Numbered from the stretch's first letter, positions 56,545 to 64,000 are shown. The stretch: 64,000 nucleotides of DNA from Escherichia coli (GCF_045037415.1 NZ_CP173438.1), one strand, 5' to 3'. The notes: a model not told the origin generated them from the sequence alone. Numbers and translations: made by a program.

Positions 56545-59058
56545 TTAATTAATTTCATCGTCTAAAAACTCATCGGGTTCAAACACACTAATATTAACGA
56601 CCTCCTCCTTATCAGAGGATATTAGTTCTGTATTTCCATTTTCATCAGTAATCCCACTCATTTTTAGCCCACTTTCCAGTTCTAGTTCATAGGGCCAATT
56701 AATAAGTGGTTGCCCAGTATTTTCATCCAGCAAAATAAAGCTCTGATTAAAATCCTCAGACTTAATCACCGGAAATGCCATCAGCTCCGGCGTCAGCTTC
56801 GCCTTCGGCTTACGCCCGTAATATCCCGCCTTAACGTTATATTCTCCCGGCGTACCGGCCTCTATCCCACAGGCATCCAGCCGGATGTAGCTGCCACCGC
56901 CGTTAAGGGTGATTTTCTTCTTCGCGGTGATTTTAATCTCATCTTCCGTACTGGTGATCTCTATCGATTTCTGCGCCAACAGTTCCATCAGATCGTTCTG
57001 TGCCTGTACCGAGATCGCCCCTTTATTGGCAAACAGTTTGATACCCGCTTTGCGTACAAACACGCTCAGCGCCTGACCCACGCCGATAAACATATTCTTC
57101 ACGACACCGATATCAGCGTGATTTCCTGCGTTCGCGATCAGGTTTTTCGACGCCGCCAGTTGCAGGTGCTCTCCGCTGGCGATCGCCACGCCTTTGGGTG
57201 CGCTTAGCAGGATCGCAGCCTGCGTCAGATCTTTTACACTCTGCTGCAACAGCGCTATCTGTGATGACAGATCTGCCGGATCGGCATTCGCCGTCTGCGC
57301 ATCAGTGGACAGCGACTTCATCTGTGACTGTGCGCCATCCAGTATTGCCATCGCCGGAGCCATTTCGCGCACCTTACCCTGCGCCTTGTCCTGCGCGTCG
57401 GAGCTGATAAAGATGCCTTTCTTTGCCCGTACTGTACCCCACAGATCGGTACGCAGTTCAAAGCCTTCCCCGCGCTGCTGTTTTCCGGCATCCACCAGAT
57501 GGCCGAGGTTGAGCTGGCTCTTGCCGCCATACTCGGTACTGACCTTGATATGCTCTTTGCCGCGCTCGTCATCGAGGCGGATTTTGTTGTTCGCCGGGGT
57601 GCGCAGTACGTTGCGCTTGTAGTTCTGAATGGTCACATGGTCGGTGTGTGCCGAGTCGTGTTTTACGCCTGCAATATAAGGTCGGTCCGGGTTGCCTTCC
57701 TCAAACGCGATGCTGACTTCCGTTCCCGCCAGCAGCGGCAGATGCAGGCCGTAGGTGTCTCCCGCATACGGGCGCGACTGGCGTACCCACAGGCTTTCAT
57801 AACCCGGTTTCCACGTATCGCGGTCAAAGTCGAGGTTGACCCGGTAGCGCCCGTCCTTGTCGATATGGGCGTAGATGTCGTTCTTCACCGTGCTGGTGAC
57901 CCGTGCCGGGAGCGTGCCGGCCATCACGGGGCAGGGGATAAGCGCCGGGCGGTAGCCATAGCGTTCTGAGTACGGGATGGCGGTAAACGTCAGTTCATAG
58001 CTGCGGTCACGCGCCGCGCTGGCCGTCACGCCGGTAATCAGTACGCCCTTGCGGAACACCGCTGGCGCGTCGTCACCCTGAACTTTTATCTCCAGCCCCG
58101 GCATCAGCAGTGAACTGGTGCTCTGGCCCTGTAGAATGGCCTGTTCATTCAAATAGCGTTCGTGGCGGATACGGGCATAAAACGCGCCGCTTTCCGCTGC
58201 CTCTTTATCGCCTTTTTGCAGGAAGTTGTCAGCGTAGTGGTAGGCTTCGCCGTAGGTGGTGTTATCGCCCCCGGTGGCGTCATGCTGGCCTGTGGTCATT
58301 TCCGCCGTGGCTTCACGGTAGTTGTAGTCCCGCGTGGAGACGCTTTTTTCCACCACGCTGTACGCGCTGTTCAACCCCCATACGGCTTCCGTTTCACCAT
58401 CAAACAGCCCTGAAGGATGACGAAGCGGCAGCGTCAGTCCGCGCTCATAGCCGCTCTGGTCGTCATAAAACTCGACAACTTCGATTTTCAGCCGGGCGTC
58501 GGTGGCAAAGCGGAACCAGATACCCACCTCCGACAGCAGGCGTGAGACAAACGTCAGGTCGTCCTCACCGTACTGCATCACCTGTTCACGGGCCGGGTAT
58601 TCGTTTTTGAGGTTAAACACGAAGTCCTGACCGCGCATTTGATGGCGCTCGCGCAGGATTTTTTCGACGATTTGCGGCACCGTCTGGTTCTGGTAGATGG
58701 CGTTCTGGCGGCTGCGGGTAAGCAGCGCCATACGGGGTTCAAGGCGCACTTCGTAACGGGCTTCGTCCTGTGACGATGAGAGGTGTTTAAAGCTGGTAAT
58801 GACGCCGTGCAGGGTGCGCAGGGCAGTCTGCACCGGCATTCCCTGCACGGGCGGTGCCGTCAGGCTGAATGCGCCGTCCTGCATCAGCACCGACTCCGGC
58901 GTTATTGCTTTATTGGTACTGGTAAACTCAATGTCGTAGCGGAAGGGTGAGCTGAGCTGTTCGTGGCCCGTAAACGTCAGCACATCCGCCGGGCTTTTCA
59001 GGCCGCGAATTTTGAGCTTGTGGTGTGAGTGGTCGAAATTCAGAGTCGGGATATCCAT
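56545..59058 (-). CDS. vgrG: T6SS spike protein VgrG (copy 1, with about 100-aa C-terminal extension)
   Basis: 837 aa starting MDIPTLNFDHSHHKLKIRGLKSPADVLTFTGHEQLSSPFRYDIEF. Confidence 0.85.
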   Translation of the reverse strand: MDIPTLNFDHSHHKLKIRGLKSPADVLTFTGHEQLSSPFRYDIEFTSTNKAITPESVLMQDGAFSLTAPPVQGMPVQTALRTLHGVITSFKHLSSSQDEARYEVRLEPRMALLTRSRQNAIYQNQTVPQIVEKILRERHQMRGQDFVFNLKNEYPAREQVMQYGEDDLTFVSRLLSEVGIWFRFATDARLKIEVVEFYDDQSGYERGLTLPLRHPSGLFDGETEAVWGLNSAYSVVEKSVSTRDYNYREATAEMTTGQHDATGGDNTTYGEAYHYADNFLQKGDKEAAESGAFYARIRHERYLNEQAILQGQSTSSLLMPGLEIKVQGDDAPAVFRKGVLITGVTASAARDRSYELTFTAIPYSERYGYRPALIPCPVMAGTLPARVTSTVKNDIYAHIDKDGRYRVNLDFDRDTWKPGYESLWVRQSRPYAGDTYGLHLPLLAGTEVSIAFEEGNPDRPYIAGVKHDSAHTDHVTIQNYKRNVLRTPANNKIRLDDERGKEHIKVSTEYGGKSQLNLGHLVDAGKQQRGEGFELRTDLWGTVRAKKGIFISSDAQDKAQGKVREMAPAMAILDGAQSQMKSLSTDAQTANADPADLSSQIALLQQSVKDLTQAAILLSAPKGVAIASGEHLQLAASKNLIANAGNHADIGVVKNMFIGVGQALSVFVRKAGIKLFANKGAISVQAQNDLMELLAQKSIEITSTEDEIKITAKKKITLNGGGSYIRLDACGIEAGTPGEYNVKAGYYGRKPKAKLTPELMAFPVIKSEDFNQSFILLDENTGQPLINWPYELELESGLKMSGITDENGNTELISSDKEEVVNISVFEPDEFLDDEIN

Positions 59059-59163
59059 CTCTGTACTCCTTTATATTTATGAAAAATAAATCCAAGTATG
59101 ATTCTCTTTAAAAAGGGAAAAATGCAAAAAATATAACTAATTAAAGTAAGCTACTTATAATTT

Positions 59164-62421: not shown

Positions 62422-62423
62422 GA

Positions 62424-64000
62424 TTACACTCCTTCAACAACAGCGTCATCGTTTTTGATGGCATTCAGCAGGCATTCAAGACAAAAATCGGATGAGTCCA
62501 CGGCTGAAAGGATGGGAAATTCTGGCATAGGAACCTTCTCCGAGGCTTTAGGCTGACGCCCGTAATGTACCGCTTTGACGTTATAATCCCCCGGCGTTCC
62601 CGGCTCAATGCCGCTACCCTCTATCCGGATATAACTCCCACCACCATTAATCGTTATTTTTTTCTTCGCGGTGATTTTAATCTCATCTTCGGTACTGACG
62701 ATCTCTATCGATTTTTTCGCCAGTAACTCCATCAGATCGTGCTGCGCCTGTACCGATACTGCGCCTTTATTGGCAATCAGCCTGATACCCGCCTTGCGTA
62801 CAAACACGCTCAGCGCCCGTCCCACGCCGATAAACATATTCTTCACTACGCCGATATCGGCGTTGTTTCCCGCATTTATCTGGAGGTTTTTCACCGCGGC
62901 CAGTTGCAGGTGCTCGCCGCTGGCGACCGCCACGCCTTTCGGTGCGTGCATCAAAATCACCGAGGCGGTCAGGTCATTTATCCGGCTGGTTATCAATGCT
63001 ATCTGCGCGGCCATATCCGCCGGATCGGCGTTCGCCGTGGCCGCATCGTCAGACAGTTTCTGGATTTTATCGCTCAGGCTGTTCAGTTCGCTGATAATGT
63101 CGGCCATTTCGCGCACCTGACCCTGCGCCTTGTCCTGCGCGTCGGCGCTGATAAAGATGCCTTTCTTTGCCCGTACTGCACCCCACAGATCGGTACGCAG
63201 TTCAAAACCTTCCCCGCGCTGCTGTTTCCCGGCATCCACCAGATGACCGAGGTTGAGCTGGCTCTTGCCGCCGTACTCGGTACTGACCTTGATATGCTCT
63301 TTGCCGCGCTCATCGTCGAGGCGGATTTTGTTGTTCGCCGGGGTGCGTAGCACGTTGCGCTTGTAGTTCTGAATGGTCACATGGTCAGTGTGTGCCGAGT
63401 CGTGTTTTACCCCGGCGATATAAGGTCGGTCCGGGTTGCCTTCCTCAAAGGCGATGCTGACTTCCGTTCCCGCCAGCAGCGGCAGATGCAGGCCATACGT
63501 GTCACCTGCATACGGGCGCGACTGGCGCACCCACAGGCTTTCATAACCCGGTTTCCACGTATCGCGGTCAAAGTCGAGGTTGACCCGGTAGCGCCCGTCC
63601 TTGTCGATATGGGCATAGATATCGTTTTTCACCGTGCTGGTGACCCGCGCCGGGAGTGTGCCGGCCATTACCGGGCGGGGGATAAGCGCCGGGCGGTAGC
63701 CGTAGCGCTCTGAGTACGGGATGGCGGTAAACGTCAGCTCATAGCTGCGGTCACGCGCCGCGCTGGCCGTCACGCCGGTAATCAGTACGCCCTTGCGGAA
63801 CACTGCTGGCGCGTCGTCGCCCTGAACCCTGATTTCCAGCCCCGGCATCAGCAGTGAACTGGTGCTCTGGCCTTTGAGAATGGCCTGTTCATTCAGGTAG
63901 CGTTCGTGGCGGATACGGGCATAAAACGCGCCGCTTTCCGCTGCCTCTTTATCGCCTTTTTGCAGGAAGTTGTCGGCATAGTGGTAGGCTTCGCCGTAGG
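62424..64000 (-). CDS. vgrG: T6SS spike protein VgrG (copy 2), 5' end beyond window
   Basis: Frame is open to the window edge; 63100-64000 is near-identical to 57400-58260 of copy 1; the C-terminus differs. Confidence 0.8.
   Translation of the reverse strand, partial: YGEAYHYADNFLQKGDKEAAESGAFYARIRHERYLNEQAILKGQSTSSLLMPGLEIRVQGDDAPAVFRKGVLITGVTASAARDRSYELTFTAIPYSERYGYRPALIPRPVMAGTLPARVTSTVKNDIYAHIDKDGRYRVNLDFDRDTWKPGYESLWVRQSRPYAGDTYGLHLPLLAGTEVSIAFEEGNPDRPYIAGVKHDSAHTDHVTIQNYKRNVLRTPANNKIRLDDERGKEHIKVSTEYGGKSQLNLGHLVDAGKQQRGEGFELRTDLWGAVRAKKGIFISADAQDKAQGQVREMADIISELNSLSDKIQKLSDDAATANADPADMAAQIALITSRINDLTASVILMHAPKGVAVASGEHLQLAAVKNLQINAGNNADIGVVKNMFIGVGRALSVFVRKAGIRLIANKGAVSVQAQHDLMELLAKKSIEIVSTEDEIKITAKKKITINGGGSYIRIEGSGIEPGTPGDYNVKAVHYGRQPKASEKVPMPEFPILSAVDSSDFCLECLLNAIKNDDAVVEGV

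Follow-up and report, generated by a model that had tools for sequence, protein, structure and literature searches.

Paralogous vgrG genes in the type VI secretion locus of Escherichia coli ST131 probably combine a recombining core with cargo-specific tails

The subject of this work is a pair of vgrG genes, termed copy 1 and copy 2, which are located at positions 56,545 to 64,000 of a 64,000-nucleotide stretch of Escherichia coli DNA (GCF_045037415.1, NZ_CP173438.1; referred to as the window) and belong to the type VI secretion system locus T6SS-1. Very probably they are two of three paralogous spike genes in which a recombining core is joined to cargo-specific tails, each gene heading its own effector module. 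This reading draws on the anatomy of the sequence, the identity of the encoded domains, the linkage of tails to cargo genes, the mosaicism of the cores and the existence of chimeric deletion products. The third gene (copy 3) lies beyond the window. Positions refer to the window unless stated otherwise, and the coordinates of the features are listed in Table 1.

Comparison of the whole window with itself by blastn yielded a single off-diagonal match, 62545-64000 against 56801-58256, with 87.6% identity over 1463 columns (E = 0). The repeat is direct, both members having the same orientation, and its offset is constant at 5744. An initial annotation of the window had described about 0.9 kb of copy 2 (63100-64000) as nearly identical to copy 1 at the nucleotide level, had suggested a self dot-plot as check and had named similarity at the protein level only as the result which would speak against it. 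The ungapped count gave 853 of 901 identical nucleotides between 57356-58256 and 63100-64000 (94.7%, 48 differences, no indels), in agreement with that description in its substance. Copy 2 is cut by the end of the window, and the in-window comparison is limited to this 901-nt part of the core; copies 1 and 2 agree over at most 89 nt in a row. The boundary of high identity is sharp and lies between 57358 and 57359 (63102 and 63103 in copy 2), which corresponds to amino acids (aa) 567/568. Just past it only 25 of 60 nt match, the helix and DUF2345 part (56824-57355 against 62568-63099) is identical at 394 of 532 positions (74.1%), and the last 270 nt of copy 1 and 140 nt of copy 2 are unalignable. 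The divergence of the 3' ends had thus been recognized correctly, and it proceeds in two steps. One detail of orientation has to be added to the earlier description: both genes are encoded on the minus strand, with the shared core forming their 5' two-thirds and the 3' ends lying at lower coordinates.

Between copies 1 and 2 the synonymous divergence (dS) amounts to 0.06-0.33 in the core and to 0.55-0.96 in the DUF2345 part, with a nonsynonymous divergence (dN) of about 0-0.04 in the core. The low dS of the core means that its similarity does not merely reflect constraint at the protein level. Viewed over further genes, three nucleotide layers can be distinguished. Nucleotides 1-1650 form a common pool with 90-98% identity, whatever the cargo or strain; nucleotides 1650-2250 occur as two types, A and B; and the final 100-270 nt track the cargo. 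Among seven vgrGs, type A of the helix/DUF2345 segment was always found with a TTR-like (transthyretin-like) tail and type B with a short tail.

By their domain content, copies 1 and 2 are paralogous VgrG (TssI) spike genes. Copy 1 scored 465.9 bits and copy 2 458 bits with TIGR01646, compared with a cut-off of 121.8 bits, and both were recognized as VgrG under the curated definition (TIGR01646/TIGR03361, Pfam). They have a common Pfam architecture with DUF2345 at about 605-745; in copy 1 it consists of Phage_GPD (32-348), Phage_base_V (399-465), T6SS_Vgr (486-587), DUF2345 (605-745) and the tail (746-837). Copy 1 matched the VgrG structure of strain CFT073 (2P5Z) with 1042.6 bits (E reported as 0) and the full-length VgrG1 of enteroaggregative E. 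coli (EAEC; 6SJL) with E = 1e-194 over residues 12-823. For copy 2 the 5' 802 nt are situated beyond the window end, the gene start being at the window-equivalent position 64802; the full gene corresponds to positions 22425-24803 of the O25:H4/ST131 locus L001 and is identical to the window in the overlap. The vgrG genes are placed between tssH/hcp and tssM/tssA/PAAR/tssFGJE, that is, inside a T6SS cluster, and every gene in the 54-64 kb part of the window is encoded by the minus strand. According to the RefSeq annotation of L001, the order on the coding strand (5' to 3') is tssH, vgrG copy 3, M23 peptidase, hypothetical, vgrG copy 2, DUF4123, DUF3304, Tle1-like, vgrG copy 1, SLT transglycosylase, hypothetical, 404-aa protein, tssM, tssA and PAAR, and the T6SS-1 locus contains three vgrG-effector modules. 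A side observation concerns codon 366 of copy 1 (57961-57963), which encodes Cys (...ALIPCPVMAG...) where copies 2 and 3 and CFT073 2P5Z have Arg; it is a single non-conservative change in an otherwise near-invariant core.

The tail of copy 1 which follows DUF2345 comprises 92 aa and has an isoelectric point (pI) of 4.05, with 20 Asp/Glu versus 7 Lys/Arg residues. From the initial annotation, which had noted an acidic C-terminal extension of roughly 100 aa, the acidic character could be retained, but the length was overstated, the net difference being 45 aa (837 vs. 792 aa). In phmmer searches the tail matched the TTR domain of VgrG1 in 6SJL (residues 732-829) with E = 4e-7 and, weakly, the TTR domain at the start of the effector domain of VgrG2b (6H56). 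An AlphaFold2 (AF2) model derived from five tail variants reached predicted local confidence (pLDDT) values of 80-90 over construct residues 55-120, with a whole-model mean of 63.7. With this model Foldseek returned 6SJL_A as top match (E = 2.9e-4, prob 1.0), followed by many transthyretins that individually are weak (E = 0.15-0.8). Homology and predicted fold identify the tail of copy 1 as a TTR-like domain of the kind found in EAEC VgrG1. Four TTR-like variants share the linker ...GRKPKAKLTPELMAFPVI and split exactly at the start of the TTR domain. Copy 2 ends soon after the conserved part and is directly followed by an adaptor gene of the DUF4123 family, just as the initial annotation had it. 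Its tail is 97% identical at the nucleotide level to the tail of the O4:H5 vgrG that precedes a DUF4123 gene, and the SLT-linked tail is 99% identical between ST131 and O103:H2.

The linkage of tails and cargo was analyzed in 14 vgrG genes from eight E. coli T6SS-1 loci/strains, namely that of the window and seven further ones. In 14 of 14 genes the tail type corresponded to the type of the first downstream gene: SLT (3/3), a 262-aa hypothetical protein (4/4), a 296-aa-type hypothetical protein (2/2), DUF4123 (3/3) and one case each of a PGRP amidase and an M23 peptidase. Between tssH and the 404-aa gene, which is no cargo gene itself and bounds the variable vgrG-cargo region on its downstream side, the number of vgrG-cargo modules ranges from one to three and their combination varies from locus to locus. 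This fits the earlier proposal that each C-terminus probably specifies a different cargo; a tail would do so by binding it.

For the two window copies the neighboring genes suggest two modes of loading. Downstream of copy 1 the SLT gene starts after 21 nt and no adaptor gene is present; copy 2 shows the order vgrG, DUF4123, effector, with the Tle1-like gene downstream. The acidic TTR domain of copy 1 may bind the basic SLT protein directly and independently of an adaptor, and the short tail of copy 2 may bind the DUF4123 adaptor, which in turn would load the Tle1-like lipase. Models for both modes are known. The TTR domain of EAEC VgrG1 binds Tle1 directly by fold complementation (PMC10715212), and the domain order in the EAEC Sci-1 VgrG1-Tle1 system (6SJL/6SK0), gp27, OB, gp5-C, helix, DUF2345, linker and TTR, is that of copy 1. 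Differences are that the tail segment of copy 1 is about 36% identical to EAEC VgrG1 (including the end of DUF2345 and the linker) and that the linked cargo is SLT, not Tle1. In copy 1 such complementation, by a beta-strand, would apply by analogy. The gene linked to the copy 1-type TTR variant encodes SLT, not Tle1, in 3/3 loci; copy 1 would therefore work like EAEC VgrG1 without being the same VgrG1-Tle1 pair. In Pseudomonas aeruginosa the DUF4123 adaptor Tla1 bridges Tle1 and VgrG4a, and the Tla1-Tle1-VgrG4a system has the same order of vgrG, DUF4123, (immunity) and Tle1-like lipase as the copy 2 module (PMC13133936). For the tail of copy 2, no resemblance to characterized VgrG tails could be detected. 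Loading that depends on a DUF4123 adaptor is also represented by Tap-1/TEC of Vibrio cholerae.

Evidence for recombination between the cores was obtained from the sequences of several strains. In a pairwise homoplasy index (PHI) test on the core of the 14 genes the observed value was 0.438, compared with 0.572 +/- 0.006 after permutation, and 0 of 1000 permutations reached it. With the DUF2345 segment the test was not significant (p about 0.1), and recombination is demonstrated for the core only. Between clade C and clade A/B of ST131 (L001 vs. L005/L015) the cargo genes, tssH and the 404-aa gene, about 10.3 kb in total, differ at one site. The vgrG genes of the two clades differ at 59 (copy 3), 33 (copy 2) and 14 sites (copy 1), all within nt 259-1662. 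In clade C copies 3 and 2 share a perfectly identical tract of 957 nt; in clade A/B it is copies 3 and 1 which share an identical tract, of 1426 nt. Since different paralog pairs are identical in the sister clades and the flanks are nearly unchanged, these patterns indicate that gene conversion between paralogs has taken place since the clades split, i.e., concerted evolution on the timescale of ST131 diversification.

Recombinant products were found as well. NR363 (clade C) and Esc21 are devoid of the 6017-bp M23 module, and their first vgrG is a chimera of copies 3 and 2 which agrees with copy 3 at 44/44 diagnostic sites up to alignment column 458 and with copy 2 at 129/129 sites from column 1416; the switch point is therefore inside the identical tract. 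GPEC172 (chicken) and AF23 (human blood) carry vgrG-SLT only, the proteins encoded on either side being the same as in ST131 clade A/B, and their vgrGs combine the 5' end of copy 3 with the 3' end of copy 1. These chimeras differ from each other at columns 282-771 and hence do not go back to one event; the breakpoint of AF23 can be placed only within alignment columns 235-1347 (clade A/B references, the parental configuration of which differs from clade C). Among 5,426 complete E. coli genomes the cassette counts are nested, with 445 for the M23 module (at least 99% identity; essentially absent elsewhere, with one further genome at 95-99%), 508 for the Tle1 module and 546 for the SLT module (at least 99% identity), which is the pattern expected if the deletions are anchored at the first vgrG. 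Mosaicism, long identical tracts and recombinant products were thus all found for these direct repeats. The statement of the initial annotation that the repeats allow recombination is supported by the PHI result, the differently homogenized pairs and the chimeric vgrGs; recent exchange between exactly copies 1 and 2 was not seen. A further loss of cassettes was noticed in AVS0971 (L015, 7054-10228), where a deletion flanked by IS1 begins within the M23 gene and ends within the 404-aa gene, so that vgrG copies 2 and 1 are gone together with their modules. This route is independent of vgrG homology.

Taken as a mechanism, the first 1.7 kb or so of each gene would encode a gp27/gp5-like spike body that has to fit the same baseplate and Hcp tube. 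Homologous recombination and gene conversion would keep the sequence of this body 90-100% identical at the nucleotide level, both between paralogs and from strain to strain. Past the breakpoint (aa 567/568) the helix and DUF2345 needle of two types would follow, and the last 47-92 aa would serve as a cargo-specific address. In copy 1 a flexible linker and the acidic TTR domain would dock the SLT lytic transglycosylase directly, by analogy with EAEC VgrG1-Tle1; the short tail of copy 2 would hold the DUF4123 adaptor for loading of the Tle1-like lipase. With the cores forming long direct repeats at a spacing of 5.7-6 kb, crossovers of the RecA type from core to core would remove whole modules and leave behind chimeric but intact vgrGs, and non-reciprocal conversion would homogenize different pairs in different clades. 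Modules may have been acquired by the same route.

The source of the window is a strain of E. coli ST131 clade C. Its region 52000-64000 (12 kb, with both copies) is 100% identical and contiguous in all complete O25:H4/ST131 genomes among the matches listed, which rules out an assembly artefact as origin of the two copies, and 504 genomes cover at least 80% of it. An ISEc12 element (IS21 family) is inserted in tssM at 49870-52448, with istB at 49955-50704 and istA at 50716-52257, leaving tssM fragments at about 48102-49869 and 52449-54020 and splitting the gene at tssM nt 1768. The passages of Cummins et al. (2023, Microb Genom, PMC10711316) that deal with this locus describe the interruption of tssM by ISEc12 in ST131 clade C and its use as marker of clade C/H30, and the 5-bp target duplication GCAGT is the reverse complement of the ACTGC published there. 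Because tssM is split by ISEc12, the T6SS of the window strain is probably inactive.

It is somewhat more likely than not that in this strain the modules are decaying relics, in which the resemblance and the tails are historical and no present function is left. In favor of this view are the split of tssM with the target duplication published in the cited passages (PMC10711316), the frameshift in the candidate SLT immunity gene, and the loss of modules by recombination or IS1 in some ST131 genomes. On the other hand, none of the three vgrGs or of the effector ORFs (open reading frames) is disrupted, and clade A/B strains with intact tssM have identical cargo genes. Moreover, decay bears only on activity today; it can stand beside the structural explanation given above and does not replace it.

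A different pairing, in which the TTR domain of copy 1 loads the upstream Tle1-like lipase as in EAEC, SLT is not its cargo, and copy 2 together with DUF4123 has another or a joint role, is unlikely. It could appeal to the direct binding of Tle1 by the homologous TTR domain of EAEC VgrG1 (PMC10715212) and to the tle1-like gene, which ends 105 nt upstream of copy 1. However, the vgrG tail upstream of the DUF4123-DUF3304-DUF2235 block is unchanged in O4:H5, MS 16-3 and PSJ-42, but the vgrGs that follow the block carry different TTR variants; O103:H2, KY175, GPEC172 and AF23 have the SLT-type TTR with SLT but without any Tle1; and the lipase resembles the adaptor-dependent Tle1 of P. aeruginosa (4O5P), not EAEC Tle1. 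Still less credit can be given to a tandem duplication in situ, after which the 3' ends diverged and the similarity of the cores persisted as a residue, with no ongoing exchange or mobility of modules. Direct repeats of the same orientation, 5744 nt apart and with an indel-free core, would suit such an origin, but the divergence is step-like (from the dS of the core to that of DUF2345 and the unalignable tails), other strains have these modules singly or combined differently, the core is mosaic in the PHI test, and the sister clades differ in which paralogs are identical. That purifying selection on a conserved protein, the core being structurally constrained with its low dN, explains the similarity and that the repeats have no recombinational role is extremely improbable, given that synonymous sites are conserved too, and unevenly, that perfect tracts of 957 and 1426 nt connect paralogs, and that chimeric vgrGs flank deletions.

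Several observations weigh against the proposed combination of recombining cores and cargo-specific tails. All demonstrated exchanges involve copy 3, outside the window, and for the pair of copies 1 and 2 neither a chimera nor a long identical tract was seen, identical stretches reaching at most 89-128 nt. An ST131 genome lacking the Tle1 module alone (M23 and SLT kept), as a crossover of copies 2 and 1 would produce, was not found, not every genome having been inspected. Within ST131 no gains or swaps were observed, only losses and conversions; in the comparison of cassettes across strains that the initial annotation had suggested, varying module combinations and tails tracking the cargo were seen, and swaps within ST131 were not. 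The linkage sample is small (14 genes) and its choice non-random. For the copy 2 tail, searches of PDB sequences and Pfam gave no match (in the PDB at chance level only), and a homolog with characterized function was not detected. The Pfam match of the SLT protein is weak (E = 1.4e-5), and no relative of it was found among PDB sequences. Finally, the disruption of tssM and the frameshifted candidate immunity gene suggest that the modules are unused in the window strain.

The arrangement as such is already known. The passages of Cummins et al. (2023, Microb Genom, PMC10711316) report 'three different vgrG genes' in ST131 T6SS-1, each with putative effectors downstream (M23 peptidase; lytic transglycosylase; DUF4123 + DUF2235), and thus describe the same locus with the same three modules, ISEc12 target duplication and split point. 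As far as these passages show, nucleotide-level repeats, the TTR tail of copy 1, gene conversion between paralogs and chimeric vgrGs are not analyzed there. A survey from 2025 states, in the passages concerned, that the presence of the three vgrGs varies within ST131 (PMC12282107). The underlying principles come from the literature on EAEC, P. aeruginosa and V. cholerae (PMC5361080). In V. cholerae, exchange of effector-immunity modules of the T6SS by homologous recombination was reported by Kirchberger et al. (2017, PMC5361080). The V. cholerae clusters and the ST131 locus are alike in that conserved structural genes flank variable effector modules, in their mosaic structure and in homologous recombination as the inferred driver. 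They differ in that the homology in ST131 is one between tandem vgrG paralogs of a single locus, leading to intragenomic conversion and to module deletion with chimeric vgrGs, whereas in V. cholerae replacement between strains with orphan immunity arrays is found (PMC5361080). The ST131 locus also fits within the concept of the 'vgrG island' or 'VT module', which reportedly goes back to Ma et al. in 2018 (BBA Gen Subj).

What may be new is modest: the explicit gene conversion between paralogs and the recurrent crossover deletions within ST131, and the map of TTR variants to cargo. A joint reading goes further, and we regard its chances as even. It holds that the vgrG cores of ST131 form a concerted-evolution array, that recurrent independent core crossovers underlie the niche-associated variation in vgrG content, and that the TTR tails act as an address code in which the acidic SLT-type TTR docks the Lys-rich N-terminus of SLT by strand complementation. 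The code would comprise at least four TTR variants, each with a different adaptor-less cargo (SLT transglycosylase, PGRP amidase and two unannotated proteins). 'VgrG1 alone' in poultry ST131 is an example of niche-associated vgrG content given in the passages of the 2025 survey (PMC12282107). Neither the core-crossover mechanism nor a TTR address code is mentioned in the passages of the ST131 T6SS literature used here; PMC12282107 does not contain the term 'recombination' (0 occurrences), and PMC10711316 was not searched for it. As a discovery the arrangement carries little weight, as multiple VgrGs with cargo-specific C-termini, loading by TTR or DUF4123 and the three-module ST131 locus have all been described in print before. 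What is added is of descriptive value, namely clear nucleotide-level evidence that gene conversion and the loss of entire toxin modules make use of the shared spike core in a globally important clone. The suggested tail-to-cargo map for E. coli T6SS-1 could help to predict effector repertoires from short reads, where repeats fragment the assemblies, and could guide tail-swap designs.

Table 1. Positions of the vgrG genes, their segments and the neighboring genes (window coordinates, except copy 3).
Feature	Position	Strand	Description	Basis
vgrG copy 1	56545..59058	-	837 aa, complete; WP_000354273.1	ORF, TIGR01646, Pfam, PDB 2P5Z and 6SJL
Copy 1 gp27/gp5-like core	57359..59058	-	aa 1-567; shared, recombining segment; in-window counterpart 63103-64000 of copy 2	
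Copy 1 helix and DUF2345, type A	56824..57358	-	aa 568-745; 74% identical to copy 2 segment	
Copy 1 tail	56545..56823	-	aa 746-837 and stop; linker (...GRKPKAKLTPELMAFPVI), then acidic TTR-like domain at about aa 766-832	
vgrG copy 2, 3' part	62424..64000	-	aa 269-792 of a 792-aa protein (last 524 aa)	Frame translation
Copy 2 helix and DUF2345, type B	62568..63102	-	Type common to copy 3 and other DUF4123-linked vgrGs	
Copy 2 tail	62424..62567	-	aa 746-792 and stop (47 aa); ...QPKASEKVPMPEFPILSAVDSSDFCLECLLNAIKNDDAVVEGV; putative docking site for DUF4123 adaptor	
vgrG copy 3	Within L001 25267-30820, a range that includes the M23 module (outside window, upstream of copy 2)		774 aa, tail ...MGKAHEPVELQMLAEKVDEPPVKFFFS; with M23 metallopeptidase module	
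DUF4123 adaptor/chaperone	61600..62421	-	273 aa; start 2 nt past copy 2 stop	Pfam PF13503, E = 1.3e-14
DUF3304 protein, candidate Tle1 immunity	61029..61556	-	175 aa; immunity suggested by position	Pfam PF11745, E = 3.7e-5
Tle1-like (DUF2235) phospholipase effector, putative copy 2 cargo	59164..61032	-	622 aa	Pfam PF09994, E = 3.5e-7
SLT-domain lytic transglycosylase, candidate copy 1 cargo	55921..56523	-	200 aa, pI 9.6, Lys-rich N-terminus	Pfam PF01464, E = 1.4e-5
Candidate SLT immunity gene, frameshifted	55369..55919	-	Signal-peptide ATG at 55919; 149-aa ORF 55369-55818	Comparison with L005, L006, L004 and L010
404-aa conserved accessory gene ('KPHS_23130 family T6SS protein')	54077..55291	-	Adjoins tssM in all inspected loci, with any cassettes	

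Of the genes in the copy 2 module, the adaptor scored 33.1 bits with the NCBIfam model for Tla1 (cut-off 200 bits) and the DUF3304 protein 23.6 bits with Tli1a_fam (cut-off 110); by these scores they are distant relatives of Tla1 and Tli1a, not equivalogs. A search of PDB sequences with the DUF4123 protein revealed nothing useful. The Tle1-like protein matched 9J3F (6e-12) and P. aeruginosa Tle1 4O5P (5e-9) in the PDB and appears to be kin of 4O5P rather than of EAEC Tle1. NCBIfam searches with the SLT protein, the 149-aa hypothetical protein, the 404-aa protein and the Tle1-like protein returned no families. The 404-aa protein is a predicted membrane protein, for which some records give the name 'KPHS_23130 family T6SS system protein'.

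In the candidate SLT immunity gene of the window, the signal peptide is set out of frame with the 149-aa body by an A7 tract (55826-55832); the intact 180-aa form with signal peptide has A8 and is present in the ST131 clade A/B strain GN03507. Variation among other strains affects this A tract and, 60 nt upstream, a T7/T8 tract (55886-55893). At the 5' end of the SLT gene (about 56470-56523) clade A/B (L005/L006) has one extra A after AAATCAGC, the window having the 200-aa form. The clade A/B SLT is called as 212 aa by RefSeq, with a start inside the vgrG 3' end in another frame. The SLT gene of KY175 is split by another A-tract change, a further instance of homopolymer variation in this cassette.

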